Part shown: in pieces, positions 1 to 17,036 of the stretch
How positions within the stretch are numbered: position 1 is the first letter of the stretch
How the letters are laid out: each line of letters opens with the position of its first letter
NCBI GenBank assembly: GCA_021735655.1
Contig: JAIPGM010000014.1
Span: 1 to 17,036 of the forward strand
Direction: 5' to 3'
DNA from: Candidatus Omnitrophota bacterium
GTDB taxonomy: Bacteria > Omnitrophota > Gorgyraeia > Duberdicusellales > 4484-171
Length of the DNA stretch: 17,036 nucleotides
Program-made: the position numbers and the translations under genes
Notes under the pieces: model-generated
The model's database searches: none
What the model saw: only the letters and a program-made list of their open reading frames with translations
Told to the model about the DNA's origin: nothing

Positions 1-91
1 GTATTTGAAGATTTTAGTAATTTTAAATTACAATCTGATAAAAAAGTTTACCATTTATCTCCAGCCTAATGTAGGGCTTGCGATAAATGGC

Positions 92-117: not shown

Positions 118-140
118 GGACAATTAACATAGGAGATTCT

Positions 141-752: not shown

Positions 753-1778
753 ATGTCCGGTAAAGTCATTGATTTATCAAAGCTAAGCGAAGAGGAATTA
801 CTTAAGGTTAAAATTCGTGACCTGGGCCTCTCAATAGAAGGCACTTGGTTAGAAGATTGTATTCAGCAGTTATATGGAGAACTTGATTCTCAAGGAATCA
901 AGTTCAAACCACCTTGCTACTTAGCCGATGAATGGCTTGCTCCTGATGAAGAGCCAATAATTGGAATACCTTTTTTTTTAGCCCATCCGACGCTTATTAA
1001 GCTAGAAAGGAAAATGATGCTTGATGTCGAAGGTGGTACAAAAGCCTGGTGTATGAAGTTACTTCGTCATGAAACTGGCCATGCTTTAAATTATGCCTAC
1101 AAGCTTTATCGTCGGAAAAACTGGCAAAAGATATTTGGAAAATTTTCCAAGGAGTACGCTGATACTTATCGTTTTCGTCCTTATAGCAAGAATTTCGTTC
1201 GGCATTTGGAAAATCATTATGCTCAATATCATCCTGATGAGGATTTTTCGGAAACTTTTGCTGTCTGGCTTACGCCGGGGCTTAATTGGCAACAACAGTA
1301 TAAGGGTTGGCGGGTGATAAGTAAACTTCATTATGTCGATAAGATTATTAATGAAGTAAAAGATAAAGAGCCATTGGTGGAAAAGGGTAGTCGTTATTGG
1401 GAAGCTAGACGCATGCGCACGACTTTGAAGAGTTTTTATAAGAAAAAACGTCGTTCCTACGCAGAGGATTTTCCTGATTTTCACGATTCTAACTTAAGAC
1501 GAATATTTACCTTACCGGAACCGGAAAGCAAACCTTTGTCTTCGGCGGCAGCAATTTTAAAAAAGTACCGCAAAGAAATATTGAATAATGTAGCTCGTTG
1601 GACCGGAGAAAGAAAATATATTATTGGAGACCTTATTGATACTTTGATTCAGCGATCTAGGGAACTTAAATTGGTGGTTGTTGATCAGGAATCGCTGGCG
1701 GTACTTAAAATTTCTACCTATATTACGACTTTGGTGATGAACTATCTTTATACTGGAGGCTTTAGTAAGGAAAGATGA
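753..1778 (+). CDS. HExxH zincin-like putative metallopeptidase; family uncertain.
   Basis: Canonical HExxH (H-E-T-G-H, aa 106-110, nt 1068-1082) inside a helix-like context (LLRHETGHALNYAYKL). A possible third ligand (Glu/His) sits downstream (HYAQYHPDEDFSETFAVW). Start abuts the upstream stop (TAA-ATG), and the 3' end overlaps the next gene by 4 nt (ATGA). Confidence 0.6.
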   Translation: MSGKVIDLSKLSEEELLKVKIRDLGLSIEGTWLEDCIQQLYGELDSQGIKFKPPCYLADEWLAPDEEPIIGIPFFLAHPTLIKLERKMMLDVEGGTKAWCMKLLRHETGHALNYAYKLYRRKNWQKIFGKFSKEYADTYRFRPYSKNFVRHLENHYAQYHPDEDFSETFAVWLTPGLNWQQQYKGWRVISKLHYVDKIINEVKDKEPLVEKGSRYWEARRMRTTLKSFYKKKRRSYAEDFPDFHDSNLRRIFTLPEPESKPLSSAAAILKKYRKEILNNVARWTGERKYIIGDLIDTLIQRSRELKLVVVDQESLAVLKISTYITTLVMNYLYTGGFSKER

Positions 1779-2794
1779 AAAAACTAAGGGTTCTTTTGCT
1801 TTTTGATAGTCCAGTTTCGAGAATGCGCGGTTATGACTTTAAAGAGGAATTTAAGGATGTTGATTGGGATACCGAGCGCAGCACTTATGAAGTTTTAACT
1901 AAAGCGGGACACGAGGTAAGGATCTTAGGTCTTTATAATAATATTAATATACTTCTTGAAGAGATTGCCGAAATCAAACCGGACATAATTTTCAATATGG
2001 CTGAAGTGTTTAATCAAAAGTCATACCTAGATAAGAATGTTGCCGGAGTTCTTGAGATGCTAGATATTCCTTATACCGGGGCATCTTTAACTACTTTGGC
2101 TATTTGCGGCGATAAAGCTTTATGTAAAAAGATACTTAGTTTTCATAGAATTAAAGTTCCCCAGTTTTATACTTTCTATCGTCACCGGCGGATCTGGCTT
2201 CCTAAGAGACTTCGTTTACCATTAATTGTTAAACCGCTCAGTGAAGAAGCTTCTCGAGGGATTTCTCAAGCTTCAATCGTCGACAATGAGGAGGCGATGA
2301 TTGAGAGAGTTAAGTTTATTCATGATAGTATGAAGAATGACGCCATAGTTGAAGAATACATCGAAGGTCGGGAGCTTTATGTTAGTGCAATTGGTGATAA
2401 GCGAATTAAGATTTTACCTATGCGTGAGATGAAGTTTGGTAGCCTCGGTGAAGATGAGCCGCGGATCGCTACCTATAAGGCAAAGTGGGATTATAAATAT
2501 CGAAAAAAGTGGGAAATTAAAAATATGTTTGCCGGAAGGCTACCTAATGGCTCAACCGAGAAGATAAATGAAGTTTGCAAGCGTGCCTTTAGAGCTTTAA
2601 ATTTGGAGTGTTACGCCCGTTTTGACATTCGTTTAACAAACGATTCAAAAATATATATTCTTGAAGTTAATGCTAACCCTTCTTTAGACCCTGATGATGA
2701 ATTGGCCCAGTCAGCAGAAAAGGGTGGATTAACTTACGATAAGCTTATTCAAAAAATATTGATATTGGGGCTTAAGAGAGGTGGAAATAATTAA
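1775..2794 (+). CDS. ATP-grasp enzyme of the D-Ala-D-Ala ligase / RimK-like superfamily (amidoligase).
   Basis: Collinear with the Ddl fold throughout. RVLLLFD at the N-terminus; DIPYTGASLTTLAICGDKALCKKIL in the central domain; PLIVKPLSEEASRGIS (P-loop-like); EEYIEGRELYVSAIGD; an omega-loop-like KAKWDYKY; and the C-terminal Mg/ATP motif ARFDIRLTNDSKIYILEVNANPSL. It lacks the HG..GEDG block I expect in genuine Ddl. Confidence 0.85.
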   Translation: MKKLRVLLLFDSPVSRMRGYDFKEEFKDVDWDTERSTYEVLTKAGHEVRILGLYNNINILLEEIAEIKPDIIFNMAEVFNQKSYLDKNVAGVLEMLDIPYTGASLTTLAICGDKALCKKILSFHRIKVPQFYTFYRHRRIWLPKRLRLPLIVKPLSEEASRGISQASIVDNEEAMIERVKFIHDSMKNDAIVEEYIEGRELYVSAIGDKRIKILPMREMKFGSLGEDEPRIATYKAKWDYKYRKKWEIKNMFAGRLPNGSTEKINEVCKRAFRALNLECYARFDIRLTNDSKIYILEVNANPSLDPDDELAQSAEKGGLTYDKLIQKILILGLKRGGNN

Positions 2795-2796
2795 TT

Positions 2797-3054
2797 ATGG
2801 GTGCAGAGATTTTTGTAGCTCGTTGTTATGATGTTGGAGGAGTAGGTTTGGTAATCAATGGCTGGGTCCAGTCAGGTGAGATTAGGGAAGGATCAGTCGG
2901 TAGAACCTATAAAGGAAAAAGATTTACTTTGGTAAAGATTGAAAAAGAAGGTAAGCAAATTCCTAAGGCTGTTGAGAAAGATAAGATTAATCTTTTTGTT
3001 AAACATGTTAACCGCACTGAGGTGAAGCCGGGTGAGACTGTTTATTTTGAGTAG
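2797..3054 (+). CDS. Small (85 aa) stand-alone beta-barrel protein resembling EF-Tu domain 2 (translation-protein beta-barrel). It ends in -VYFE.
   Basis: The whole length matches EF-Tu D2: VGGVGLVINGWVQSGEIREGSVG aligns with GTVVTGRVERGIIKVGEEV, and the C-terminal KINLFVKHVNRTEVKPGETV aligns with [21 protein letters not shown]. Starts 2 nt after the ATP-grasp stop. Family placement is by eye, so confidence is moderate. Confidence 0.5.
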   Translation: MGAEIFVARCYDVGGVGLVINGWVQSGEIREGSVGRTYKGKRFTLVKIEKEGKQIPKAVEKDKINLFVKHVNRTEVKPGETVYFE

Positions 3055-3063
3055 GTTTTAGTC

Positions 3064-3633
3064 TTGCAGAGATCAACTAAGATGAAAGATTTACTTAATC
3101 CTAGTCAGAGAAGTTATCTTCTTTCTTTAGTTAGAGATACTATTCAACACTATCTAAGGACAAAAGAACCCTTAGAGCCCAAGACGGAAGACTCTTTGCT
3201 AAAAGATGTGCGCGGCGCTTTTGTTACTTTGCACCAAGGAGGTAGGCTAAGGGGTTGCATTGGTAGTATAGTTGCAACTAAGCCTCTTTATTTAGAGATA
3301 AGGGATATGGCTATTGCCGCAAGTACCCAAGATTCGAGATTTTCTCCGGTGAGTGAAGGAGAGCTGGCCGACATAAGAATAGAGATATCAGTTTTGTCGC
3401 CGTTTAAAAAAATAGTTAATTCTGACGAAATCATAGTTGGCAAGCATGGAGTTTTAGTGAAGCAGGGGTATAAAAGTGGAGTTTATCTACCACAAGTAGC
3501 TAAAGAGACCGGATGGGGTAAGGAAGAATTTATGAATAGTCTTTGTAGGGATAAGGCTGGCATCTCAGTTGATTCTTGGAAGAGGGGTGAGTGCGAAATC
3601 TATATTTTTAGTGCAGAAGTATTCGGAGAGTAG
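3064..3633 (+). CDS. AMMECR1-domain protein.
   Basis: Signature GAFVTLHQGGRLRGCIGS and downstream GKHGVLV / GVYLPQV blocks typical of AMMECR1. The annotated start is TTG at 3064; an in-frame ATG at 3082 (MKDLL…) is an alternative start. Confidence 0.8.
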   Translation: MQRSTKMKDLLNPSQRSYLLSLVRDTIQHYLRTKEPLEPKTEDSLLKDVRGAFVTLHQGGRLRGCIGSIVATKPLYLEIRDMAIAASTQDSRFSPVSEGELADIRIEISVLSPFKKIVNSDEIIVGKHGVLVKQGYKSGVYLPQVAKETGWGKEEFMNSLCRDKAGISVDSWKRGECEIYIFSAEVFGE

Positions 3634-3639
3634 TTAAAA

Positions 3640-4395
3640 ATGTCTAAAACTGTAAAAAATTTAATTATTGCCAATGTTTCAGTTTTTCTGCTTAGCTCTA
3701 TTTGGCAAGAGTTTCCGATCGGGCTGTTAGCTATGGTTCCGAGATTGGTCTTTTCAAAGTTAATGATTTGGCAGCTAGTTACCTATATGTTTGTGCATCT
3801 TGATTTGTGGCATTTGGTGATGAATATGCTGATGCTTTGGTTTTTTGGACCAGCAATCGAGGCAGCTTGGGGCCAGAAGCGATTTTTAATTTATTATTTT
3901 TTTACTGGTATCGGCGCAGCTTTATGCAGTGTTATTTTTTCCTTTAATTCACCGATAATCGGAGCCTCGGGTGCAATATTTGGAATATTGGTTGCTTACG
4001 CCATGCTTTATCCTGATAATATGATTTTGTTTTTTTTCTTTGTTCCGATGAAGATGAAACATGCTGTTTTTGTCTTAGCCGGAATAAATCTTTTGGGGGC
4101 AATTTCAGCTTCTGGCAGTGGCATTGCTTACATAGCTCATTTAGGCGGTGGTCTTTTTGGTTACCTTTACTTAAAAAACGAAACTTTACGCCATCGCCTT
4201 CTATCTTTAGACTTTGAGAAGATCAAATCATGGTTTAATAAGCCATCGGCAAAACCGACAAAGTCTACTAAACCCAATAAGCCTAAAACCTTTGATGAAC
4301 GGGTTGATGAGATTCTTGATAAGATATCCAAGAAAGGAATGGCTAGCCTTACTAAGGAGGAGATAGATATCCTTGATCGACGTAGTCGTTCTTAA
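3640..4395 (+). CDS. Rhomboid-family intramembrane serine protease with a C-terminal Pro/Lys-rich linker and a SHOCT-like tail.
   Basis: Multiple TM helices. Catalytic GxSG (GASGAIFGIL) and a His in AHLGGGLFG sit in the last TM helices. The tail KPSAKPTKSTKPNKPK followed by ERVDEILDKISKKGMASLTKEEIDILD fits the L-x-L-x3-G-x-[IL]-T-x-EE-[FI] SHOCT pattern. Confidence 0.85.
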   Translation: MSKTVKNLIIANVSVFLLSSIWQEFPIGLLAMVPRLVFSKLMIWQLVTYMFVHLDLWHLVMNMLMLWFFGPAIEAAWGQKRFLIYYFFTGIGAALCSVIFSFNSPIIGASGAIFGILVAYAMLYPDNMILFFFFVPMKMKHAVFVLAGINLLGAISASGSGIAYIAHLGGGLFGYLYLKNETLRHRLLSLDFEKIKSWFNKPSAKPTKSTKPNKPKTFDERVDEILDKISKKGMASLTKEEIDILDRRSRS

Positions 4396-4437
4396 CCCGC
4401 CATTTTGTTAGTTTTTCCTAGAAACTTACTGCTGAGC

Positions 4438-4466
4438 TTGACAAACCAAGATAAATAGGCTATACT
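4438..4466 (+). promoter_or_regulatory. Near-consensus sigma70 promoter: TTGACA (4438-4443), 17 nt spacer, TATACT (4461-4466).
   Basis: Read directly from the sequence. It lies in the only sizeable intergenic gap (4396-4512), about 47 nt upstream of the MarR ATG. An AGGAGG Shine-Dalgarno is at 4501-4506. Confidence 0.6.
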
Positions 4467-4473
4467 TTGGTTG

Positions 4474-4495
4474 ATTAATAGTTCACATTATTAAT
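4474..4495 (+). promoter_or_regulatory. Inverted repeat ATTAATA-N8-TATTAAT between the -10 element and the RBS; candidate MarR operator.
   Basis: Perfect 7-bp arms read from the sequence. Position relative to the -10/+1 region is typical of MarR autoregulatory sites. The AT-rich context makes chance palindromes more likely. Confidence 0.35.
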
Positions 4496-4512
4496 ATTTT
4501 AGGAGGTTAATT

Positions 4513-4974
4513 ATGCCTAAAGAAAGTCAAATAAAACAATTTTCTCAAGAGCTTACCGAAAGTATATCTTATATCCAGCGAATGGCCCGAATATTGCTAA
4601 GAGAGCGTTCCGATGCATTAATTCAGGGAAAAGTAACCATGCCCCAGTATTTGAGTCTCGAGTTGCTCAGTAATCATGGCGTTCTAAAGATGAAAGATAT
4701 TGCCAAAGCTTTAAATATTAGTCTTCCAGCGGCAACTGGCTTGGTGAATCGTTTGGTCAAAATGAAGTTAGTTGAGCGGGTTTATGATCAAGAAGACCGC
4801 CGGGTAATATTTGTTGAGCTCACCAGTGAAGGGAAAAAAACTACTGATGAAACTAAGTTAGCCCGGAGAAAAATTATTGAGGAGATGTTTGGCGGTATTA
4901 CCGATGAAGAAAGGGAAATTTATATTAGAATTATTCGCAAGGTAAAGAGTAATTTAAATGAAAAAGCTAAGTAA
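4513..4974 (+). CDS. MarR-family winged-helix transcriptional regulator.
   Basis: The wHTH core (TMPQYLSLELLSNHGVLKMKDIAKALNISLPAATGLVNRLVKMKLVERVYDQEDRRVIFVELTSEGKK) matches the MarR recognition helix and wing pattern. Size is 153 aa. The 3' end overlaps the next gene by 17 nt. Confidence 0.85.
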   Translation: MPKESQIKQFSQELTESISYIQRMARILLRERSDALIQGKVTMPQYLSLELLSNHGVLKMKDIAKALNISLPAATGLVNRLVKMKLVERVYDQEDRRVIFVELTSEGKKTTDETKLARRKIIEEMFGGITDEEREIYIRIIRKVKSNLNEKAK

Positions 4975-6439
4975 AAGTAAAAACATTAGTTTATTTTTAA
5001 TTCTAGTGGCAGGATTTTTTTTAACTTTTAAAGGTTTCACTGAAGACCTATTGCCTTTGGAATTGTCTTTAGAAGAGGTAACCGAGATTGCTTTGGAAAA
5101 TTCTTTGGATATTCAGATTGCTAAGTTTGATACCTATATTAGTAGAACCTCTAAAGATGAGGCTGAATCAATATTTGATACTATTTTTAGCGCTGAAGCT
5201 AGCTATAATCGAAATCGAAAAGAAACGGCCAGTTCTTTGGCCGGAACCGATACTCGAGAGACTATTTTTTCATTGGGTCTTGAGAAAAAACTACCTACCG
5301 GAACCACGCTTGCTCTAGATGCAATCAACACCAAGACTAAAACTAATAGTTCTTTTACTACCTTAAATCCTTATACTGAAGCTGGGCTTGAATTTTCAGT
5401 AACTCAGGAGTTAGGTAGGAATTTCTTTGGCTTAGCTGATCGGGCTAAGATTAAAATTACTAAAATCGATATTGAAAATTCTGAGTTTGTGTCTTTGGAT
5501 GATATTGAACAGTTTCTCTATGCTGTTCAGCGTTCCTATTGGAATTTAGCACTTCGCGAAGAAGAGCTTTTAATCGCTAAAGATATGCTGTCGGAAGCAG
5601 AAAAACTTTATGAAATTTACAAGGAAAAGAAAGAGCTAGGCTTGGTCGAGGAGAGTGAATTTTTAGCAATTGAGGCTTTACTTAAGGCCCGTCAAAGTAG
5701 CATTAATGTAGCTCAATTAGCTCGGGAAACGGCAAAGAATGATTTATTATTTTTAATTAACCGTGGTGATTTTCAGCAAAATCTTATTCCTCGGGATAGT
5801 CTAGATATCGAGGTTTTTGAGACAGATTTATATCAAGCTTTGAATCGGGCAGTTGATTCGCGTCGTGACTATAAGCGGATTAAAAATGAGTTAGAGAAAA
5901 ACAAGATTGATTTGGTGGTTAAAAAGAATGCCCTTTGGCCGCAAATAGATTTTGAGGCTACTTTTACTCGCAATAATATTGATACCGGACGCAGTCAGGC
6001 TTGGGGGGATATTTTTAGCGATGGCGGCGAAGATGTTTTTTTTAAAGTAAGTTTTGAGGTACCGCTTGAAAAAAGAGCGGCTCGTTCTCAAGTTCGCAAG
6101 GCCGACTTAGAAAAATCTCGGTTTTTACTCAAGTTTAAGCGAATTGAACGTCTATTGTTACAGGAAATCAACGATAAGGTTAATCAGGTAAATACGATGC
6201 AGAATCAAGTCAAACTATTTAAGCAGACGGTTAAAATTCATCAGCGCAAACTTAAGAGTCAAATTGAGCGTTTAAGTTTGGGGCGCTCTGATTCAGATAC
6301 GCTTATTCGTTACGAGGAAGACTTATTAAAAGCACGTTTATCTTTAGCGGAGTATTTATTTAATTATCGTACTAGTTTGATCGAGCTGGATTTAAAACAG
6401 AACATTTTACTAGATAAGTATTGGCAGGAGCCACTTTAG
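4958..6439 (+). CDS. TolC-family outer-membrane efflux protein (outer membrane factor, OMF).
   Basis: N-terminal signal peptide, then the classic OMF opening (LSLEEVTEIALENSLDIQIAKFD…). Two-fold internal repeat of beta-strand and coiled-coil segments. 493 aa. Confidence 0.85.
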   Translation: MKKLSKSKNISLFLILVAGFFLTFKGFTEDLLPLELSLEEVTEIALENSLDIQIAKFDTYISRTSKDEAESIFDTIFSAEASYNRNRKETASSLAGTDTRETIFSLGLEKKLPTGTTLALDAINTKTKTNSSFTTLNPYTEAGLEFSVTQELGRNFFGLADRAKIKITKIDIENSEFVSLDDIEQFLYAVQRSYWNLALREEELLIAKDMLSEAEKLYEIYKEKKELGLVEESEFLAIEALLKARQSSINVAQLARETAKNDLLFLINRGDFQQNLIPRDSLDIEVFETDLYQALNRAVDSRRDYKRIKNELEKNKIDLVVKKNALWPQIDFEATFTRNNIDTGRSQAWGDIFSDGGEDVFFKVSFEVPLEKRAARSQVRKADLEKSRFLLKFKRIERLLLQEINDKVNQVNTMQNQVKLFKQTVKIHQRKLKSQIERLSLGRSDSDTLIRYEEDLLKARLSLAEYLFNYRTSLIELDLKQNILLDKYWQEPL

Positions 6440-6451
6440 GAGAGCAAAGCG

Positions 6452-9400
6452 ATGAGTATTGTTGAATTTTCAGTAAAGCGTTCACTTTTAGTAAACCTTA
6501 TTTCAGTTTTTATCTTAGTCGCTGGGTTTTTGTCGGTTTTTGTGTTTAAGATTAGAAGAGAGGCTTTTCCTGAAGTTTCTTATGACATTGTCATTGTTAG
6601 TACGGTTTATCCGGGGGCAGCCCCCGAGGAGGTAGAAAAGCTAGTTACCATACCGATTGAAAAGGAGTTAAAGGGAGTAGACGGAATAGAGAAGATGAAG
6701 TCTACCTCCCTAGAGAACTCTTCAAACATTTCAATCGAGATAAGCCAAGATGTAAAAAACAAGCGCAAGGTTATTACCGATATTCAAAAGGCGGTTGATC
6801 GAGTAAGAGATTTACCGGCCGGAGTAGAGGATGACCCAGTAGTAAGTGAGGTTACTTCTGGAGAGTTTCCGGTAGTTCAGGTAGCCTTAAGTGGTGATAT
6901 GCCTGAGAAAGAGCTTCAAGAGTATGCTGAAAATCTAGAAGATATCCTAGAAGATATTCCTGGTGTTTCAAAGATTTCTCGGATTGGTTATCGAGATCGA
7001 GAAGTCTGGGTTGAGGTTGATCCACAAAAGCTAAGCTCTTTTCATTTAAGCCTTGAAGAGGTAATGGAAGCTCTGGCTAGGAAAAACCGAAGTATTCCCG
7101 GAGGAAAAATCAGAGGAGTTCAAGAGTTCAGCATTCGGACAACCGGTGAATTTTATACTAAAGAAGAAATTGAAGATGTGGTTATCCGGGCTAATGAGAC
7201 TGGGAATTGGCTAAGAGTAAAAGATGTGGCTGAAGTAAAGTTTTCTTTTGAGGATGAAAACACAATTAATAAAAGTTTTGGTACTCGGTCGATAGACCTT
7301 ACTGTAATCAAGCGGGCTAGCGGTGACGCGATTGAAATAGTTGAAAAAGTCAAGCTTAAGACTGAAAAATTTTTAACTCAGACAAATGATTCTCGTTTGG
7401 AAACTTCTTACATTAATGACATATCTTTTTATATTAAACGTCGGCTAGGTACGCTTAAAAATAACGGAATAGTCGGTATTGTTTTAGTTTGTTTTGTTTT
7501 GATGATATTTTTGCAATTTCGGATTGCTTTGATAACTGCTATTGGACTTCCGATTGCTTTTTGTGCAACTTTGGCGGTAATGAGCTTTGTTGGTTTGAGT
7601 ATAAACCTAGTTACCATGTTTGGTTTGATTGTGGTTTTGGGTATGTTAGTTGATGATGGCATTATTGTTTCTGAGAATTGTTCACGCTATCTAGAAGAGG
7701 GCCATTCACCTTATCAGGCGGCTATTTTAGGAACCCAGGAAGTAATAAAACCAGTTACTACTACAATAATTACGACCATTGCTGCTTTTAGTCCGCTTCT
7801 TTTTATGGGGGGGATGATGGGGAAGTTTATCTGGGGGATACCTCTGGTAGTTATTATTGCTCTTTGTGCTTCTTTATTTGAAGCCTTAGTTATTTTGCCT
7901 TCGCATTTTGCCGATTTTATTCGTCGGGATAAAAATTTTAAATCGCGTAAAGAACTCCCTTGGTTTAAGAAATTGGTCGTTGTCTATACTCGATTAGTGA
8001 CTAAGGCTTTAAATCGGCGTTGGTGGGTATTGGGAGGATTATTTTTAGTTTTAATTTTAACTGTTGGTTTAGTTATGCACATGCCAAAAATTCTTTTTGC
8101 TTCTGAAGAAGGAATAGAAGAGTTTACTGTCCGGGCCGAAGCCCCAGTCGGAACTAATCTTTATTCCACTGATAAGTTAATTAAACCGATAGAGGAAGAA
8201 GTCGCTAAGATGCCTAAAAATCAGGTCGAAGCCTACACTACTCAAGTTGGTTCAATCGGTGATAGTTGGCATTTTGATCCTTATGGTAAGAGCGGTAGCC
8301 ATGTAGTTCAGGTGACAGTTCACTTAACGCCTTATAAGCAGCGCAAAAGAAAGGTTAGTCAGATCATCGAAGACCTACGAACTAAAATTGGTGATGTTGA
8401 GGGGTTTGATCGGGTTTACTTTGAGAAACCTCAGGCTGGACCTCCGGTCGGTGCACCGGTTGCGGTTGAAATTCGCGGCGAGAGCTTTGAAGTTTTAAAC
8501 AAAATCGCTAATCAGATAAATGAATTTTTAAAAACCATTCCCGGTATTTCCGATATAGTATCTGATTATGAGGTTGGCAGAGGAGAAATTCGGGTTATTG
8601 TTGATGAAGAAAAAGCTGCCCGGACCTATTTGTCGGTCGGTGAAGTGGCTTCAAGTATTCGCAATGCTTTTCGCGGCGGGGTGGCTACTTCAATTAAGCC
8701 GGTTAAGGCTGAAGAAGAGATTGATGTTTTAGTGAGATTTCCCGATGACTATCGTACTAAGCGAGAATCCTTTGAAAAAATATTAGTTCCTAATAAGTTT
8801 GGTAATTTAATCCCTTTAGCTAAGATAGCTAGATTTGAGGATGGTGTATCGGTAGCCAGGGTTCAGCATCTCGACGGAAAAAGAGTGATATCGGTCAAAG
8901 CTAACGTTGATAACCAGAACATTACTTCTAATGAAGCTAATAAGCTGATTAAGGATAAATTTAAGGATGTTTCAATTAATTTTCCCGGATATAGTATACA
9001 GTTTGGCGGAGAGCAAAGGGAAAATGTCCGTTCAATGAAAGATTTCGCTAATGCTTTTATTCTGGCCTTGTTTTTAATTTTTTTAATTTTAGCCGCTAAC
9101 TTTAATTCATTGGTTCAGCCGTTAATCGTTATGATGGCGATTCCTTTTGGTTTTATCGGAGTCATCTGGGCTTTTTTCTTCCATGGTTTACCGATCGGTT
9201 TTTTTATGTTTATGGGTGCAGTAGGTTTAACTGGAATAGTAGTTAATGATTCTATAGTTTTGGTTGAGTTTGTTAATAATTTAAGAAGAAAAGGGGTCGA
9301 TCGAAGACATTCATTAATTCAAGCCGGTCAGTTACGCTTGCGGCCGGTTTTACTTACTACGATTACTACTGCTCTTGGTTTGACCCCGACAGCCTATGGT

Positions 9401-9574
9401 ATTTGGGGCGGAGACCCATTTTTAAAGCCAATGGCTTTGACTATTGTTTGGGGTATAGTTTGTGCAACCGTTCTAACTTTGGTTGTCTTGCCTTGTATTT
9501 ATGCTATTATAGATGATATTACTTTAAAGCTGGCTGGCCATACGACAGTTAAGAAAAGCAATATCACTATATGA
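6452..9574 (+). CDS. RND-superfamily efflux permease (AcrB-like, HAE1-type architecture, 12 TM).
   Basis: 1040 aa. TM1 followed by a large periplasmic domain (VSTVYPGAAPEEVEKLVTIPIEKEL). The TM4 proton-relay pair is present (MLVDDGIIVSEN; DD at nt 7652-7657). There is a second large periplasmic loop, and an Arg in TM11 (LRLRPVLLTT). No adaptor gene is present either side. Confidence 0.93.
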   Translation: MSIVEFSVKRSLLVNLISVFILVAGFLSVFVFKIRREAFPEVSYDIVIVSTVYPGAAPEEVEKLVTIPIEKELKGVDGIEKMKSTSLENSSNISIEISQDVKNKRKVITDIQKAVDRVRDLPAGVEDDPVVSEVTSGEFPVVQVALSGDMPEKELQEYAENLEDILEDIPGVSKISRIGYRDREVWVEVDPQKLSSFHLSLEEVMEALARKNRSIPGGKIRGVQEFSIRTTGEFYTKEEIEDVVIRANETGNWLRVKDVAEVKFSFEDENTINKSFGTRSIDLTVIKRASGDAIEIVEKVKLKTEKFLTQTNDSRLETSYINDISFYIKRRLGTLKNNGIVGIVLVCFVLMIFLQFRIALITAIGLPIAFCATLAVMSFVGLSINLVTMFGLIVVLGMLVDDGIIVSENCSRYLEEGHSPYQAAILGTQEVIKPVTTTIITTIAAFSPLLFMGGMMGKFIWGIPLVVIIALCASLFEALVILPSHFADFIRRDKNFKSRKELPWFKKLVVVYTRLVTKALNRRWWVLGGLFLVLILTVGLVMHMPKILFASEEGIEEFTVRAEAPVGTNLYSTDKLIKPIEEEVAKMPKNQVEAYTTQVGSIGDSWHFDPYGKSGSHVVQVTVHLTPYKQRKRKVSQIIEDLRTKIGDVEGFDRVYFEKPQAGPPVGAPVAVEIRGESFEVLNKIANQINEFLKTIPGISDIVSDYEVGRGEIRVIVDEEKAARTYLSVGEVASSIRNAFRGGVATSIKPVKAEEEIDVLVRFPDDYRTKRESFEKILVPNKFGNLIPLAKIARFEDGVSVARVQHLDGKRVISVKANVDNQNITSNEANKLIKDKFKDVSINFPGYSIQFGGEQRENVRSMKDFANAFILALFLIFLILAANFNSLVQPLIVMMAIPFGFIGVIWAFFFHGLPIGFFMFMGAVGLTGIVVNDSIVLVEFVNNLRRKGVDRRHSLIQAGQLRLRPVLLTTITTALGLTPTAYGIWGGDPFLKPMALTIVWGIVCATVLTLVVLPCIYAIIDDITLKLAGHTTVKKSNITI

Positions 9575-11463
9575 TTTTTTTAAATAACCTTTCCAAAAGT
9601 TACGGTTCGAGGATTCTTTTTGAGAATTTTTCCTTAACCATTGATCGCGGTGAACGAATCGGCTTGGTTGGTCCCAACGGAGCTGGCAAATCTACACTTT
9701 TCAATATTATTCTTAAGCAAAACGAAAGCTCTTCGGGAACTATTCAGATAAATAAAGGTGTTCGTATTGGTTATCTTGCTCAAGAGGTAACCTTTAATTC
9801 AGAAGCTACAGTTTTGTCAGAGCTAACTGCTGGTGATGAGTCGATTAAGAAGCTCAAAAAAGAAAAGGATGCTTTAGAGAAAGAGAACAAAGCTGCCGGA
9901 GCTCGCTACGGGGCAGTACTCCACGATTTAGAGTTTTTTGGTTATTTTGATTTAGAGCATCGAGCTAAAAAAATATTAAGCGGCTTAGGCTTTGCGAATT
10001 CAGATTTTAATCGGCCGGTTAATGAAATGAGCGGTGGTTTTAAGATGCGAGTTTTATTGGCTAAGCTGTTGCTGTATCCTTATGATATTTTACTTTTGGA
10101 TGAACCTACCAACTTTCTAGATTTAGAAGCAGCTATTTGGTTTAAAGATTATTTATTAAAATTTAAGGGAACTTTTGTGATGATTTCTCACGATCGGGAT
10201 TTTCTTACCGAGGTAACCAGCGACACTTTAGTTTTAGAAAACGGAGCAATCACTAAGATCAAGGGAAATTATGATGATTATGAAAAGATGTGTAATGAGC
10301 AGCGAGAGCGCCTGCTTAAGCAGTTTAAGGAGCAGGATAAAAAGTGTAAACAATTGAAAGTTTTTATTAATCGGTTTCATGCTCAGCCGAATAAGGCTTC
10401 CCAGGTTAGATCTAAGAAACGGATGTTAGAGAAGATGGATATCATTAACGTACCGTTAGATCGCAAGGAAAGTATCCGCAAGTTTAATTTTCCAAAGGCC
10501 ACACGCAGTGGCTACCGGGCGATAGAGCTTAAAAGTATTTCTAAAGCTTACGGTGATATCTCGGTGTATCAAGATTTTGATTTTGAACTAACTCGAGGAG
10601 AAAAGTCAGTTTTTATCGGCCATAATGGAGCCGGCAAATCGACCCTCTTAAAGATTTTGGCCGGAGTTATTGATATTGATTCCGGATCGCGGATTCTTGG
10701 CACCAATATTGATATTGGTTATTTTTCACAAACCCGTCTTGATGTTCTAACTCCCGATAATACTGTTTTTGAAGAAGCCTATTCAGCTTCCGGAGGCAGG
10801 CTGACTAATGATGAGATTAGAACGGTTTTGGCCGCTTTTTTATTTACCGGAGACGATGTTGAGAAGAAGGTTAGCATTCTTTCCGGAGGAGAGAAGAGTC
10901 GTTTGATTTTAGCAAAACTTTTAATTAACCCTCCTAACTTTTTGCTTTTGGATGAGCCGACAACTCATCTTGATGTTGATGCAGTTGAGGCATTAATCAG
11001 AGCTTTAAAAGAATACGACGGAACACTTGTTTTTATAAGTCATGATATCCATTTTGTTCGCTCGGTAGCCAATATGGTTTTTGAAATCAATAAGGGGCGA
11101 GTAAGGAAATTTCCCGGCAGCTTTGATTACTATTGGCAAACTGCCAGGCATAAAGATGTTGTTGAGCTTAAACGTAAAAAAATAAAATCGAAATCGTCCC
11201 CAGTAAAAGAAATGTCAGAAAAAGATAAGGAAAAGAAACAAAAAAAAGAAAACGAGAAAATTTCCAAGAAGATAAAAGCCCTTAGGAAAGAAAAAGAAGA
11301 CTTAGAGCTGGAATATAATGTGAAGTGGCGGGTTGTTTCTAATCCCCGCAGCTATCATCGTAAAGAGGTAGCTTCTGAATATAGCCAACGCTTGAAAGAA
11401 CTGAAGTGCCAAATAGCGAAAAATGATCAAGAGATAAAGGACCTCAAAAAGCTGTTTAAATAG
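9571..11463 (+). CDS. ABC-F family ATPase: two ABC domains, an inter-domain linker, and a Lys/Glu-rich C-terminal coiled-coil (Uup/EttA-like architecture).
   Basis: Two Walker A motifs (GPNGAGKST, GHNGAGKST) and two signature motifs (MSGGFKMRV, LSGGEKSRL). Walker B motifs LLLDEPTNFLD and LLLDEPTTHLD. No transmembrane domain. The C-terminal KRKKIKSKS…KEKKQKKENEKISKKIKALRKEKEDLE tail is present. The ATG overlaps the RND stop (ATGA). Confidence 0.9.
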   Translation: MIFLNNLSKSYGSRILFENFSLTIDRGERIGLVGPNGAGKSTLFNIILKQNESSSGTIQINKGVRIGYLAQEVTFNSEATVLSELTAGDESIKKLKKEKDALEKENKAAGARYGAVLHDLEFFGYFDLEHRAKKILSGLGFANSDFNRPVNEMSGGFKMRVLLAKLLLYPYDILLLDEPTNFLDLEAAIWFKDYLLKFKGTFVMISHDRDFLTEVTSDTLVLENGAITKIKGNYDDYEKMCNEQRERLLKQFKEQDKKCKQLKVFINRFHAQPNKASQVRSKKRMLEKMDIINVPLDRKESIRKFNFPKATRSGYRAIELKSISKAYGDISVYQDFDFELTRGEKSVFIGHNGAGKSTLLKILAGVIDIDSGSRILGTNIDIGYFSQTRLDVLTPDNTVFEEAYSASGGRLTNDEIRTVLAAFLFTGDDVEKKVSILSGGEKSRLILAKLLINPPNFLLLDEPTTHLDVDAVEALIRALKEYDGTLVFISHDIHFVRSVANMVFEINKGRVRKFPGSFDYYWQTARHKDVVELKRKKIKSKSSPVKEMSEKDKEKKQKKENEKISKKIKALRKEKEDLELEYNVKWRVVSNPRSYHRKEVASEYSQRLKELKCQIAKNDQEIKDLKKLFK

Positions 11464-11487
11464 GCCATTTTTTGCTATAATCATTAG

Positions 11488-12270
11488 ATGTTTGTAATTA
11501 AGATAAAGCCTGAAAGAAAAATTGATATTATTGTTCGGATCGGCCTGTATATAAGCCTAGGTTTACTTATTGCTTCTTTTGTTCAAAAAGGCGTACTTCC
11601 CAAAAAGAAAGCAATACATCCTGATTTGTATCAAGAGCCGATTCAGCGTGAGACCTACACTCCTTCTTTTGAAGCAAAAGCTGAGGGTTCAATTTACGAT
11701 ATAAATCCGAGTCACCACTATAAACTTAATGGTTTGGTTGTTTCTCAACACGACTCAACCGCTTGGTGGGATTATTATCATAAAAAATGGGGTGATTCAT
11801 TAAATCTAAAAGATGTTTGTGTTATTTGGGGCGATAACCTTGAGAATGAAACCTATCGAAGAATGCGTTTTAGAAATGGTAATTGGACTTGCTATGTGTC
11901 AGTAAATCATAAAACAGCTGATCAAGATTGGGCACAGTTTAATATGGCGGCTTTATCCAATAATCACCTTTTGTCGGATAAAGCTGAAATCAACCAGGCT
12001 TTACGCAAGGTGCATGTTGGTGATCAGATTTATCTCAAAGGATACTTGGCATCCTATCATCGTCAAGGAAGCCATTTTTCTCGTGACTCAAGTATCTCGC
12101 GAACCGATGAAGGTGATGGCGCTTGTGAAACAATTTACCTTACTGATTTTAAGGTTCTTAAAAGCGCTAATTTTTTTTGGTGGTCAGTTTATGGAGTATC
12201 TAAATATTTAGTCTTGATATTATTCATTTTTTTAGTTTTCCTTCGAATTCAAGCCCCTTTGAGCAGGTAA
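11488..12270 (+). CDS. Hypothetical membrane protein of unknown function, with a TM helix at each end.
   Basis: Predicted TM helices at aa ~15-35 and ~225-250, flanking a ~190-aa hydrophilic domain rich in Trp, His and Tyr (WWDYYHKKWGDS, NGNWTCYVSVNH). I see no recognisable family motif. The start has a weak RBS. Confidence 0.5.
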   Translation: MFVIKIKPERKIDIIVRIGLYISLGLLIASFVQKGVLPKKKAIHPDLYQEPIQRETYTPSFEAKAEGSIYDINPSHHYKLNGLVVSQHDSTAWWDYYHKKWGDSLNLKDVCVIWGDNLENETYRRMRFRNGNWTCYVSVNHKTADQDWAQFNMAALSNNHLLSDKAEINQALRKVHVGDQIYLKGYLASYHRQGSHFSRDSSISRTDEGDGACETIYLTDFKVLKSANFFWWSVYGVSKYLVLILFIFLVFLRIQAPLSR

Positions 12271-12279
12271 AAAATTATC

Positions 12280-13401
12280 ATGATTACCAAACCATTATTA
12301 TTAAAAGTTTATGAAGCAGCCAGCATGCAGCGCTGGAATGATCAGATTAAGGCGGTGGAGCTTACTGAGCTCGATAAGCAAGCGCATAAGATGATCATTG
12401 CCTATTGCTTAGGCAAGTGTCAGGAGAAGTACAAGACGGCCGGTTTTAACTGGATCGAGATTATCGAAGCCGGAATATTTGAATATTTACAGCGAATAGT
12501 TCTTACTGATTTAAAGCCACCCTTATTTCATCGGATAAAGGAAGATCAGGATAAATACCGGCGTCTTAATGAATGGGTTTATGAAAAAATAGAAAAGGTT
12601 ATTCGGCCGCTTGGTGAAGGATTTTGCCAGCGCTTTAATTCCTATCTTCTAGATCCTAAGCGGAATGTGAACCGAAGGATTATAAGTGCTGCTCACTTTT
12701 ATGCAACTAAATGGGAGTTTGATATAATTGAACGGGCCAATCCTCAAGGTTATTTGATTGAAGAGATCAGGGAAGATATCCGTACCAAACAGGAACGTTA
12801 TCACGATTTAGAAAGTATGCAGGATTTGTTAAATTCACCCGGTCTTAAGAGTTTTGTGAATATTTGCGGCCAGCTTCGTTTTCAGATTCGCTGGAGTCAT
12901 CTTCCGAGAGTTCCTAAGACCTCGGTATTGGGCCATATGCTGATTGTCGCTATGATTGCCTATCTTATGTCTGAAAATTCCGGTGCCGATTCTGAGCGTT
13001 GCTTGAACAATTATTTAACCGGGCTGTTTCATGATTTACCTGAGGTTTTAACTCGGGATGTAATTAATCCGGTAAAAAGATCGGTTGAAGGTTTGGATGA
13101 CTTAATTAAAGAGTATGAGCGCCAGGAAATGGAAAGAAAAATATATAAGTTAATTCCTACCGATTGGCATTCTCAGATGAGGAATTTTACCGAAGAAGAG
13201 TTTACTAACACTGCTTCCCGCGATGGAGAGCTTATTAAGGCAGTTGATGAGTTGGCTGCCTTTCTGGAGGCCTATTTATCTTTGGCTAATGGCATTCAGA
13301 GCCAAGATTTTACAACAGCTAAGAAATCTCTGCCGCGTAAGTATAAGTCTAAAATAATTGCCGGAGTTAATTTCGCTAAGATTTATAAAGAGTTTTGTTG
13401 A
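12280..13401 (+). CDS. HD-domain phosphohydrolase of the YfbR-like (5'-deoxynucleotidase, HD_3) type, carrying a duplicated, degenerate N-terminal HD-like domain.
   Basis: C-terminal half: IRWSHLPRVPKTSVLGHMLIVAMIAY (His219) and LTGLFHDLPEVLTRDVINPVK (H251-D252, nt 13030-13035), then KAVDELAAFLEAY. This matches YfbR's RW…SEHSLQVAMVAHA / YHDASEVLTGDLPTPVK / KQADALCAYLK. The N-terminal half repeats the same pattern (QRWNDQ…, RIVLTDLKPPL) but has E-Y where the H-D dyad should be (nt 12481-12486). Confidence 0.75.
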   Translation: MITKPLLLKVYEAASMQRWNDQIKAVELTELDKQAHKMIIAYCLGKCQEKYKTAGFNWIEIIEAGIFEYLQRIVLTDLKPPLFHRIKEDQDKYRRLNEWVYEKIEKVIRPLGEGFCQRFNSYLLDPKRNVNRRIISAAHFYATKWEFDIIERANPQGYLIEEIREDIRTKQERYHDLESMQDLLNSPGLKSFVNICGQLRFQIRWSHLPRVPKTSVLGHMLIVAMIAYLMSENSGADSERCLNNYLTGLFHDLPEVLTRDVINPVKRSVEGLDDLIKEYERQEMERKIYKLIPTDWHSQMRNFTEEEFTNTASRDGELIKAVDELAAFLEAYLSLANGIQSQDFTTAKKSLPRKYKSKIIAGVNFAKIYKEFC

Positions 13402-13426
13402 ATAATTAGTTAAGTTTAGGAGTCAA

Positions 13427-14278
13427 ATGAAAATTGTAGATATTCTTAAAACTAGGGAGTCAGGCGTGGCTTTTGAATTTTTTCCGCCTAGCACTCAGAA
13501 GAGTGAAGAGAGATTGATTGAAACAGTTAGGATTCTAAAAGACTATCAGCCGCTTTACGTTTCAATGACCCATGGTGCCGGCGGCACTGATCAAACTAAG
13601 ACTCAAAAAGCAGTCGACATACTTCTTTCAGAAGGTGGCCTAGCGGTTATGCCGCATTTAACTGGCATTTCGGCTTCAAAGAGTCAGGCTGAGGAGCTGC
13701 TTAAGGCTTATCAACTAAAGGGTCTTGAGAATATCATGGCTTTGCGGGGTGATCCACCAAAAGAGGAAATTGGAGCTAAGGTTGGAGATTTTCGTTATGC
13801 GATAGATTTGGTTAAATTTATAAAGGAACGTAGCGATCTTTGTATAGGGGTTGCCGTTTACCCTGAGGGACATATTGAAACTGAGTCAGTTGAACAAGAT
13901 TTAGACTACACAAAGCAGAAGATAGATTCGGGAGCAGATTTTGCGGTCACTCAAATGTTTTTTGATAATTCTTATTATTATTCTTTTTTAGATCGGATGA
14001 AAAAAAGAGCGATTAATGCTCCGGTTTTACCGGGCATCCTGCCTTTAACTAATATTGCTAAAGTTAAAGAGTTTGCATCTATCTGCCGAACTACAATCCC
14101 GAGGCAGATTGAAGAAAAAATGGAACAGTTTAAAGATAAACCAAAAGAGATGGAGAAAGTAGGAATTGATTTTACGATTAAGCAGTGCCGGGATCTAAAA
14201 AGTCAGGGAGTAAAGTACATACATTTCTTTACTCTTAATCGGCCTAAAGTAATGAGCGCTATTTTAGAGTCCATCTAG
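13427..14278 (+). CDS. metF: 5,10-methylenetetrahydrofolate reductase (MetF).
   Basis: FEFFPP near the N-terminus; HLTGIS…; ALRGDPP; FAVTQMFFD; and the overall ~280-aa TIM-barrel MetF layout. AGGAG RBS upstream. Confidence 0.9.
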   Translation: MKIVDILKTRESGVAFEFFPPSTQKSEERLIETVRILKDYQPLYVSMTHGAGGTDQTKTQKAVDILLSEGGLAVMPHLTGISASKSQAEELLKAYQLKGLENIMALRGDPPKEEIGAKVGDFRYAIDLVKFIKERSDLCIGVAVYPEGHIETESVEQDLDYTKQKIDSGADFAVTQMFFDNSYYYSFLDRMKKRAINAPVLPGILPLTNIAKVKEFASICRTTIPRQIEEKMEQFKDKPKEMEKVGIDFTIKQCRDLKSQGVKYIHFFTLNRPKVMSAILESI

Positions 14279-14284
14279 AAGACG

Positions 14285-14313
14285 TTGACTAGTTCCAATA
14301 GAAATAGTATGAT
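14285..14313 (+). promoter_or_regulatory. Sigma70-type promoter: TTGACT (14285-14290), 17 nt spacer, TATGAT (14308-14313).
   Basis: Read directly from the intergenic gap 14279-14336. The next gene follows after a G-rich Shine-Dalgarno (GGGGGGA). Confidence 0.55.
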
Positions 14314-14336
14314 TTAGTTTAAATCAGGGGGGACAG

Positions 14337-14921
14337 ATGAAGTTATCTATAATTTTAATTATTTCGGCCATGGTTTTATTTCCCGATAGTTTGATGGCTC
14401 AAGTTACCGAGAGCAATATTTATCCGGTTTGCCAGTCAAAGGCTATAGATAGTAAGTCAGAGCTTAAGGTAGGAGATCAAGCTCCGGATTTTACTCTTTT
14501 GGCGGTTGGTGGAGGAGAAGTTAGCTTGCATGATTATTTAGGCACTAAGTATGTAGTGATTAGTTTTGTTCCGGCGGCCTGGACTCCGGTTTGCTCGGTT
14601 CAGTGGCCGGAATACAATCAATTCGAGTCGGTGTTTAGAGATCATGATGCAGTTTTATTGGGGATAAGCGCCGATAATATTCCTAGTCTTTATGCTTGGA
14701 TAAACGATATGGGAGGCATTTGGTTTGAGGCACTTTCAGATTTTTGGCCACATGGAGCAGTTGCTGAAAAGTATGGAGTTTTACGTTCTGATGGTACAGC
14801 TGAAAGATCTTTGTTTATTATCGACAAACAAGGAATAATTCGTTATATCGATATTCATGATATTAATCAGAAGCCGGCCTTTGCCGATTTAGTTGTTGAG
14901 TTGCAGAAGCTGGAAGATTAA
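14337..14921 (+). CDS. Secreted peroxiredoxin / redoxin of the AhpC-TSA family.
   Basis: N-terminal signal peptide (MKLSIILIISAMVLFPDSLMA|QV). Motif FVPAAWTPVCSVQWPE with the peroxidatic Cys in the T-P-V-C context. About 170 aa mature length. Confidence 0.8.
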   Translation: MKLSIILIISAMVLFPDSLMAQVTESNIYPVCQSKAIDSKSELKVGDQAPDFTLLAVGGGEVSLHDYLGTKYVVISFVPAAWTPVCSVQWPEYNQFESVFRDHDAVLLGISADNIPSLYAWINDMGGIWFEALSDFWPHGAVAEKYGVLRSDGTAERSLFIIDKQGIIRYIDIHDINQKPAFADLVVELQKLED

Positions 14922-14932
14922 GGAGGGTTTTT

Positions 14933-15286
14933 ATGTTGAGATGTAAGGTCTGTAAAGTTCCTTTGAGTGGTTTTTTAAGTAAACTAGCGAGGGTTTTGTG
15001 TAAAGTTAAGCCTTCAACTGAAGAAAACGGAGTTTGTAGTAAGTGTGCTGATAAGCCGATTGGTGAAAAAAATAAAGTTCCCCTTGATCATTTAAAGGGT
15101 AAAAAATATGAGTGTAAAATATGTAAAAGAATGATTCATGAAGAGCATTCGCTTGAACATGTTAAGGCTGAGGAGTACTTAATCGAATTAATTCGCAAAG
15201 ATCATTCCAATTGGCAGCATAAGGATCCTACCTGTAAGGAATGTATTGAATATTATCGAAAGCTAGTTAAAGAAACAGAAATTTAA
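14933..15286 (+). CDS. Small Cys-rich protein with four CxxC pairs (probable double zinc ribbon); function unknown.
   Basis: CKVC (aa 5-8), CSKC (35-38), CKIC (61-64) and CKEC (101-104), plus a His-rich stretch HEEHSLEH. AGGAGG RBS upstream. No family recognised. Confidence 0.55.
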   Translation: MLRCKVCKVPLSGFLSKLARVLCKVKPSTEENGVCSKCADKPIGEKNKVPLDHLKGKKYECKICKRMIHEEHSLEHVKAEEYLIELIRKDHSNWQHKDPTCKECIEYYRKLVKETEI

Positions 15287-15323
15287 TCAATTTCAAGTTA
15301 GTATTGTTAGGAGGGTTAAAAAG

Positions 15324-16274
15324 ATGTACAGAGAACAGATCAAAGTTTTAGACTGCACCATTCGTGATGGAGGGCTTATTAACAACCATGATTTTGACCA
15401 TCGTTTTGTGCGCGAAGTTTATAAGGCCATAGCAGCTTCGGGTGTTGACTATGTAGAAATGGGGTATAAAAATTCTAAGAAACTTTTTTCTTCCAAGGAG
15501 TACGGACTTTGGAAGTTTTGTGATGATGATGAAATTCGTAAAGTAATTGAAGGAGTAGAGAGTAAGACAAAAGTCTCAGTGATGGTCGATATCGGCAGAG
15601 TCGAGCTAGATGACGTTAAGCCAAAGTCAGAGAGCCCGGTAGATATGATCAGAGTGGCTTCATATGTAAAAGATATCGACAAGGCGATACATATGACTAA
15701 TCATTTTGCTGATAAAGGCTATGAGACAACGATAAATATTATGGCTATTTCCCGGGATGCCGGAATTGAGCTAGATGAGGCGATCGAACAGATTGAGAAG
15801 GAAAGTAAAGTTAATGTTGTTTATATCGTCGATAGTTTTGGATTTTTGTATCAGGAACAGGTTGAGGCCTTGGTTAAGAAGTTTAAAGAAATTCTTAAAA
15901 CTAAAGAGGTGGGGTTTCATGGTCACAATAACCAGCAACTAGCCTTTTCTAATACGATTGAATCAATTATTCATAATGCTAATTATTTGGATGCTACAGT
16001 TTATGGAATCGGTCGAGCTGCCGGGAATTGTCCGCTAGAGTTATTAATTGGATTTCTAAAAAATCCTAAATATGATCTTCGACCGATTTTAGATTTAATA
16101 TCTAAAGAGTTTGTGCCACTGCGAAAAAAAATTGAATGGGGCTATATTGTTCCTTATGCTATATCAGGGATGATGAATGAACATCCGCGAGCTGCGATGG
16201 CTTTGCGTAACAGCACTAAGAAAGAGAACTACCGAGAGTTTTACGAAAGTCTTGCTGATACCGATTTAGAATAG
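15324..16274 (+). CDS. DRE-TIM metallolyase (HMGL-like) aldolase-family protein, 4-hydroxy-2-oxovalerate-aldolase-like.
   Basis: KVLDCTIRDGG at the N-terminus (metal/substrate Asp), DSFG, HGHNN and GIGRAAGNCPLE blocks characteristic of the HMGL-like barrel. 316 aa, so the barrel plus a short C-terminal region only. Confidence 0.8.
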   Translation: MYREQIKVLDCTIRDGGLINNHDFDHRFVREVYKAIAASGVDYVEMGYKNSKKLFSSKEYGLWKFCDDDEIRKVIEGVESKTKVSVMVDIGRVELDDVKPKSESPVDMIRVASYVKDIDKAIHMTNHFADKGYETTINIMAISRDAGIELDEAIEQIEKESKVNVVYIVDSFGFLYQEQVEALVKKFKEILKTKEVGFHGHNNQQLAFSNTIESIIHNANYLDATVYGIGRAAGNCPLELLIGFLKNPKYDLRPILDLISKEFVPLRKKIEWGYIVPYAISGMMNEHPRAAMALRNSTKKENYREFYESLADTDLE

Positions 16275-16295
16275 CTGCAGCATCTAACTTAGAGT

Positions 16296-16931
16296 ATGGA
16301 TTTAGCACAATTCAAACAGCTTCCGATAATTGGAATATTGCGTGATATTGAGTTGGAGATAGTTGATGAGCTCATTGAAGCGGTAGTTTCTTCCGGCCTT
16401 AAGACAATTGAAATTACCATGAATACTCCGAATGCTGCCAGTTTGATTAAGGCAGCTCAGGCTGCAGCTAAGGGTCGTTTGATGATTGGGGCTGGTACTG
16501 TTTTGAGCAAGCAGGATTCAAAGACAGCTCAGGATTCAGGAGCAACCTTTATAGTTTCGCCGACCCTGGTTGAGGATCTTGTTAATGATTGCTGTAAGAA
16601 GTCAATTCCGGTATTTCCGGGAGCGCTGACTCCTGGTGAAATAAATAAAGCTTGGGTTTGCGGTGCAACTATGGTTAAGGTTTTTCCGGCTAAAGTTTTT
16701 GGCCCCGGTTACTTTAAAGAGATAAAAGGTCCTTTTAAAAATATCGAACTTCTTGCTTGTGGAGGAGTTAACTCAAAGAATATCGGAGAGTTTTTCTCCA
16801 GTGGTGCCTCAGCTGTTGCTTTTGGGGCTAGTATTTTTAAAAAAGCCTGGCTTAAGAGTAGGAATTTTTCAGCGATTGAAAAAGAGATCAAGGAACTTAT
16901 TAAAGGAGATGATACGATAATTGTTCAATGA
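16296..16931 (+). CDS. eda: 2-dehydro-3-deoxyphosphogluconate / 4-hydroxy-2-oxoglutarate aldolase (Eda family, class I).
   Basis: PIIGILRD, EITMNTP, GAGTVL, SPTL, GALTPGEI, Schiff-base Lys in MVKVFPA, ACGGV. About 211 aa. This is the typical KDPG/KHG aldolase barrel. Confidence 0.85.
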   Translation: MDLAQFKQLPIIGILRDIELEIVDELIEAVVSSGLKTIEITMNTPNAASLIKAAQAAAKGRLMIGAGTVLSKQDSKTAQDSGATFIVSPTLVEDLVNDCCKKSIPVFPGALTPGEINKAWVCGATMVKVFPAKVFGPGYFKEIKGPFKNIELLACGGVNSKNIGEFFSSGASAVAFGASIFKKAWLKSRNFSAIEKEIKELIKGDDTIIVQ

Positions 16932-17036
16932 TAGTTGGTGAAAACTCTGGATTATCAGTAGAATAAATAGATAGTCACAGAGTAGATAGGTTATAGGTTG
17001 TATTGTTTTTCTGGGGCTTAATTGACCCCGTAAAGG

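Follow-up and report, generated by a model that had tools for sequence, protein, structure and literature searches.

YfbR of Escherichia coli (PDB 2PAQ, 2PAR and 2PAU; family PF12917) is a single-domain HD-fold protein of about 199 amino acids (aa) that forms a homodimer, and roles have been assigned to the residues of its active site, namely four Co2+ ligands, the catalytic E72, R18 that stabilises the phosphate, W19 that selects for the 2'-deoxy sugar and D77 that binds the sugar (review PMC8177086). Lin2634 of Listeria innocua (PDB 3MZO), an HD phosphohydrolase from structural genomics to which none of the names and descriptions retrieved gives a function, is also single-domain, and so are OxsA, HDDC2, YGK1 and DatZ, with substrates ranging from deoxynucleoside monophosphates (dNMP) to deoxynucleoside triphosphates (dNTP) and nucleoside-analogue triphosphates. 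That an HD fold which has lost catalytic residues can be kept in one chain with an active domain, in a conformational or regulatory role, is known from the pseudo-hydrolase HD domain of RelA, in the long RelA/SpoT homologues (PMC8012599), but this domain falls in a different HD subfamily and does not form part of a tandem repeat. The gene described here lies at positions 12280–13401 on the + strand of a 17,036-bp contig (JAIPGM010000014.1) from a metagenome-assembled genome (MAG) of Candidatus Omnitrophica; the whole contig was analysed and is called the window below. As a first-pass annotation made from the letters of the sequence had noted, its product of 373 aa departs from the YfbR architecture, and we are confident that it consists of two fused HD-fold copies, a C-terminal half with an intact active site and a dead N-terminal half without the metal ligands.

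The open reading frame (ORF) called at this position is complete, with an ATG start and a stop after 373 codons. Full-length homologues are 373–381 aa long with 64–84% identity, and the only name given to them, and to the window protein, is "HD domain-containing protein". The gene and its two parts are the following.

12280..13401, + strand: two-domain HD-fold protein, from the ORF call and full-length homologues
12280..12837, + strand: N-terminal pseudo-HD domain, aa 1–186, YfbR-like in fold, with the H..HD..D metal tetrad missing
12838..13398, + strand: predicted C-terminal catalytic YfbR-type HD domain, aa 187–373, from Pfam, sequence and Foldseek matches

Residues 192–357 match the HD_3 family (PF13023) with an E-value of 2.8e-31 and 109.1 bits (gathering cut-off 22.5) and the YfbR-like family PF12917 with an E-value of 1.1e-24 and 87.6 bits (gathering cut-off 25.9). 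By sequence, the solved structures matched by the C-terminal half are YfbR (2paq, E = 9e-7), OxsA (E = 2e-4), AF1432 and Lin2634, and Foldseek matched it to Lin2634, YfbR and HDDC2 with template modelling scores (TM-scores, normalised to the target) of 0.64–0.72. Conservation was read from a diverse alignment of 78 full-length representatives together with the query, with an effective number of sequences (Neff) of 5.2, and all counts out of 79 refer to this alignment. Equivalents of the YfbR active-site residues are found at these positions.

12889..12894, + strand: R204-W205, equivalent to YfbR R18-W19 in the alignment to YfbR
12934..12936, + strand: H219, equivalent to YfbR H33, first metal ligand, His in 78/79
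13030..13035, + strand: H251-D252 ("catgat"), equivalent to YfbR H68-D69, the HD dyad, His in 78/79 and Asp in 77/79
13042..13044, + strand: E255, equivalent to YfbR E72, catalytic residue, Glu in 76/79
13057..13059, + strand: D260, equivalent to YfbR D77, which binds the sugar, Asp in 76/79
13246..13248, + strand: D323, equivalent to YfbR D137, last metal ligand, Asp in 74/79

Of the 79 representatives, 74 have every ligand of the H...HD...D metal tetrad and 76 have the whole set R204, W205, E255 and D260, and the first-pass annotation, which had seen a complete YfbR signature in this half, was right on this point. Judged by its sequence, the C-terminal half has one intact YfbR-type active site, and the domain should be catalytically competent, as a phosphohydrolase with a mononuclear metal site like YfbR, HDDC2 or OxsA, and most likely cuts the 5'-phosphate or phosphates off 2'-deoxynucleotides. 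The substrate could be a dNMP or a dNTP, because OxsA, DatZ and YpgQ have the same fold, and OxsA, HDDC2, YGK1 and DatZ do not fix the substrate of the window protein, since their own substrates vary.

The N-terminal half is much harder to place. For residues 1–186 no Pfam or NCBIfam model reaches its threshold, BLASTP of one half against the other gives no signal (E = 0.7), and hhalign of the halves with a shallow alignment of 24 close homologues (Neff 1.9) gives a probability of 0.4%. Searched alone, the N-terminal half has a collinear match to PF12917, with residues 15–138 on profile positions 11–132, an E-value of 0.005 and 17 bits, which is below the cut-off of 25.9. Such sub-threshold matches are present in 13 of 15 homologous N-terminal halves, with a best E-value of 1.7e-4, and they are the sole recurrent Pfam match of this half. 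A profile of the N-terminal half was then searched against 1.84 billion representative proteins, giving 434 clusters (50% identity) at E <= 0.001 and 306 at <= 1e-10. With the 79 diverse sequences, hhalign of the N-terminal against the C-terminal halves has a score of 39.8 (P = 9.4e-6) over 171 collinear columns, residues 3–180 against residues 3–177. The reversed N-terminal half scored 15.0, 30 column shuffles at most 20.1 and 30 block shuffles at most 27.4; the likeness of the halves is beyond chance, because all 61 controls scored lower. This likeness surfaced solely through profiles and structure prediction.

Lin2634 is the nearest solved relative of the N-terminal half by sequence. It is the single significant match when a profile of 21 N-terminal sequences is compared with all PDB sequences (E = 1.5e-4, collinear over 148 residues), the hidden Markov model built from 79 sequences gives 28 bits against Lin2634, 17 against YfbR and 16 against OxsA, and hhalign of the N-terminal profile against Lin2634 has a score of 52.0 and a probability of 95%. 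No unrelated domain was matched in any of these Pfam and PDB comparisons, and further weak stretches of the N-terminal profile within the C-terminal halves of single proteins were insignificant (independent E-values >= 0.2). The N-terminal half is best described, from profile comparisons and the predicted structure, as an ancient and diverged copy of the YfbR-type fold. The first-pass annotation had proposed an internal duplication, and the homology of the two halves that this implies is borne out, but a duplication is indistinguishable from a fusion of two YfbR-type paralogues, one of them Lin2634-like, because the N-terminal profile is nearer to Lin2634 (52.0) than to its own C-terminal half (39.8).

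The register of the substitutions in the N-terminal half is common to three alignments, namely hhalign of the N-terminal against the C-terminal half, HMMER of the N-terminal half against Lin2634, and hhalign of the N-terminal half against Lin2634. The lost and kept residues are listed here.

12331..12336, + strand: R18-W19, kept, counterparts of R18 (phosphate contact) and W19 (2'-deoxy gate) in YfbR, each in 78/79
12376..12378, + strand: K33, where the first metal-ligand His is expected (YfbR H33, C-terminal H219), Lys in 70/79
12481..12486, + strand: E68-Y69 ("gaatat") in place of the His-Asp dyad, paired with H251-D252 and with the HD of Lin2634
12493..12495, + strand: R72, where the catalytic Glu is expected (YfbR E72, C-terminal E255), Arg in 55/79 and Lys in 11/79
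12508..12510, + strand: D77, kept, equivalent to C-terminal D260 and to YfbR D77, which binds the sugar, Asp in 77/79
12694..12696, + strand: H139, where the last metal-ligand Asp is expected (YfbR D137, C-terminal D323), His in 54/79 and Ser in 17/79

Position 68 is Glu in 51 and Asp in 14 of the representatives, position 69 is Leu, Phe or Tyr, and a His-Asp pair at 68–69 is found in none of the 79; Lin2634, in contrast, keeps His-Asp and the catalytic Glu where the N-terminal half has Glu-Tyr and Arg. K33 pairs with H219 in hhalign, and the spacing of 14 residues from the Trp to the ligand position is alike in YfbR and in both halves, but the placement of K33 is uncertain by one residue, as the HMMER alignment sets the Lin2634 His opposite Q34. 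Since none of the four metal ligands is left and the catalytic Glu has been replaced as well (K33, E68, Y/F/L69, H139 and R72), the N-terminal half should be unable to hydrolyse by the canonical mechanism.

R18, W19 and D77, whose numbering happens to coincide with that of YfbR, are all present in 76 of the 79 representatives, and the columns conserved at 90% or above are R18, W19, D21, E30, D77 and E146. The mean pairwise identity is 32.5% in the N-terminal half versus 37.9% in the C-terminal half. The blocks that the first-pass annotation had seen repeated do correspond, RW being found at 18–19 and 204–205, and LTDLKPP (75–81) being aligned with TRDVINP (258–264) in the profile alignment; the Glu-Tyr that it had read in the place of His-Asp is likewise there. 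With the catalytic residues gone and the fold and its conservation retained, the N-terminal half can be classed as a pseudo-enzyme domain.

The full-length AlphaFold2 model has a mean predicted local distance difference test score (pLDDT) of 87 and a predicted TM-score (pTM) of 0.91. It consists of two parallel series of helices, each opening with a helix of 12–15 residues that is followed by an RW-bearing loop closed by a β-bridge and then by another helix, which in the C-terminal half carries the first His. In this predicted structure the N-terminal half has an HD-type helical-bundle fold, and Lin2634 is among the top structural matches of both halves. Helix 1 of the N-terminal half has a pLDDT of 89 in the full model, and residues 1–31 are below 50 when the N-terminal half is modelled alone. 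An intramolecular pseudo-dimer is inferred because pTM is 0.91 and helix 1 is confidently placed in the full-length model only; the N-domain would then pack on the catalytic domain as a stand-in for the second subunit of a YfbR-type homodimer, and we regard this packing as fairly probable. The structure-prediction table also lists figures without a label, namely 12.3 for OxsA, 11.7 for YfbR, 10.8 for Lin2634, 10.6 for PH0347, 10.0 for HDDC2, 9.4 for YGK1, 9.1 for DatZ, and 8.1 both for the predicted metal-dependent phosphohydrolase 3KH1 and for YpgQ.

The explanation that we favour, with moderate confidence for the whole of it, is an active phosphohydrolase for (deoxy)nucleotides that shares its chain with a dead HD domain, and the dead domain would pack on it as a pseudo-dimer and keep a nucleotide pocket. 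This pocket would be non-hydrolytic and might serve to detect nucleotide levels and to adjust the activity of the catalytic domain. Both the packing and the pocket are suggested by the retention of R18, W19 and D77 and by the N-terminal half being nearly as conserved as the C-terminal half, and nucleotide binding is proposed because the triad is kept and basic residues have been gained at the metal site. Sensing of a ligand by the N-terminal half is a possible function that we put forward tentatively. It is doubtful that the N-terminal half is specifically a deoxynucleotide sensor which binds its ligand uncleaved through R18, W19 and D77 together with the basic K33, R72 and K79 in place of the metal, allosterically gates the neighbouring active site and makes the protein a single-chain regulator of the dNMP/dNTP pool, common among anaerobic bacteria and archaea, in which a tandem HD repeat provides a minimal SAMHD1-like logic. 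Several points weigh against the favoured explanation. The hhalign probability for the two halves is only 83%, the model of the N-terminal half rests on an alignment of 15 sequences and could show a bias of AlphaFold towards a known fold, and R18, W19 and D77 may be retained for structural reasons instead of ligand binding. The protein scores 58.5 bits against the NCBIfam equivalog model for 5'-deoxynucleotidase, NF003009, which has a cut-off of 122, and for this reason the protein is not a YfbR orthologue and its substrate is not set by homology; by analogy with OxsA, DatZ and YpgQ it could be a dNTP or a deoxynucleoside diphosphate, or it could be another compound. In full-text searches of the literature, no description or experimental study of a YfbR-type protein with tandem, duplicated or pseudo HD domains was found, but only the work on the pseudo-HD domain of RelA.

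A purely structural N-terminal half, that is a degenerate fused subunit which replaces the homodimer partner and has no ligand or regulatory role, would fit with YfbR being a dimer (PMC8177086), with the full model being confident as one unit at a pTM of 0.91, and with the dependence of helix 1 on the C-terminal half for its confident placement; the charged residues K33, E68, R72 and H139 at the former metal positions could in that case make a metal-free network of salt bridges. On the other hand, three of the six columns conserved at 90% or above (R18, W19 and D77) are at positions of YfbR that contact the substrate, and from a mere scaffold more drift would be expected than 32.5% versus 37.9% identity, and we consider this explanation somewhat unlikely. 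The same half might instead hold a non-canonical metal site and active site made of H36, E68, D77 and H139, so that the protein has two different catalytic centres. These residues are of the types that make up the H..HD..D tetrad, with two His and two carboxylates, and each is frequent taken singly (H36 in 66/79, Glu or Asp at position 68 in 65/79, D77 in 77/79 and H139 in 54/79), but only 36 of the 79 have all four together, compared with 74 for the C-terminal tetrad, H139 gives way to Ser in 17 representatives and the catalytic Glu has become Arg or Lys. A second catalytic centre was on the count of complete quartets judged very unlikely. That the N-terminal half is an unrelated all-helical domain, with coincidence or bias of the model behind both the predicted fold and the shared motifs RW and LTD..P, agrees with the BLASTP result, with the 0.4% of the shallow hhalign comparison and with a Pfam match under its gathering score. 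It is opposed by the hhalign result from the deep alignment, which stands above all 61 controls, by the PDB-wide match to an HD protein and the 95% of hhalign against Lin2634, and by the same register of residues coming out of three alignments, and it is highly improbable.

Reading the N-terminal half as a dead HD domain explains half of the protein in a family of 434 clusters and at least 596 species, and it gives a clear added example of a pseudo-enzyme domain arising within the YfbR-type HD family. The favoured explanation predicts that the protein is a monomeric pseudo-dimer in which a single active site is possibly joined by a single nucleotide-sensing site. The gain is an incremental one in annotation and in protein evolution; it is no new kind of system, and it would not surprise a specialist in HD proteins.

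The two-domain form is kept by the orthologues, both halves being present in 77 of the 78 full-length representatives, which were gathered by means of the N-terminal half alone. One genome was scanned for each GTDB species, and the N-domain is encoded in at least 596 species genomes, with at least 596 confirmed loci. Among the matches listed, the carriers belong to Omnitrophota, Planctomycetota (Brocadiaceae), Nitrospirota, Desulfobacterota/Thermodesulfobacteriota, Syntrophorhabdales, Actinomycetota, Dehalococcoidia and Bacillota, and these lineages are mostly anaerobic and uncultured, nearly all of the genomes being MAGs. The family is also carried by archaeal MAGs labelled as Methanosarcinales, Methanofastidiosum and Thermococci, and by one representative from Hodarchaeota (P0133), and this distribution suggests either horizontal spread or contamination during binning. 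A free-standing family of N-domains was considered and rejected, as most of the short representatives with only this domain come from gene calls that are truncated or frameshifted.

Across the 80 loci that were examined the HD gene has no conserved neighbour, and the most frequent "clusters" of neighbours at these loci turned out to be shadow ORFs that overlap the HD gene itself. The order ABC-F, 260-aa protein, HD gene and metF recurs among the 80 loci only in the closest relative (L001), and no PADLOC model for anti-phage defence was matched. The HD gene looks like a stand-alone, housekeeping-like nucleotide-pool gene of mainly anaerobic lineages.

Some homologues have additional parts or partners. 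A few (P0097 and P0116, of 527 aa) carry an extra C-terminal domain of the low-molecular-weight phosphotyrosine phosphatase or ArsC type, which in P0097 is a match of residues 394–519 to PF01451 (E = 4.7e-21) located after both HD-fold domains. In a group of MAGs from Actinomycetota the gene directly downstream of the HD gene encodes about 498 aa, with a DUF2779 domain (E = 3.8e-43) and a weak match to Cas4-like nucleases. It is located at 7136–8629 (+) in locus L050, 14 nt downstream of the HD gene in L051, L073 and L075, and 77 nt downstream in L072, and the two genes would constitute a lineage-specific pair of a putative nuclease with a putative deoxynucleotidase. In P0160 (451 aa), residues 237–309 match a GLAA-B beta-barrel II domain where the C-terminal HD domain should continue, and the underlying gene may be a chimera or the result of mis-assembly.

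In the window, where the identities of neighbours are Pfam assignments, the HD gene lies in the order MarR regulator, outer-membrane factor (OMF), RND pump, ABC-F, 260-aa membrane protein, HD gene, methylenetetrahydrofolate reductase (MTHFR) and peroxiredoxin, and among the 80 loci the closest relative alone shares this order. The 260-aa ORF (11488–12270, +) stops 10 nt upstream of the HD gene and has hydrophobic segments at its N- and C-terminal ends, with no match to Pfam or PADLOC models. An ORF of 117 aa without a Pfam match (14933–15286, +) is found between the peroxiredoxin gene and an HMGL-like gene. The genes of the window are functionally unrelated, and include those for a CBM_11 protein, an ATP-grasp ligase, AMMECR1, a rhomboid protein, MarR, OMF/RND efflux, ABC-F, the HD protein, MTHFR, an AhpC/TSA protein, an HMGL-like protein and 2-keto-3-deoxy-6-phosphogluconate (KDPG) aldolase. 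All 16 gene-like long ORFs of the window (1–17036) are on the + strand, separated by short gaps, and the remaining ORF of at least 90 aa, 1086..1484 on the – strand, is located inside the gene at 753..1778.

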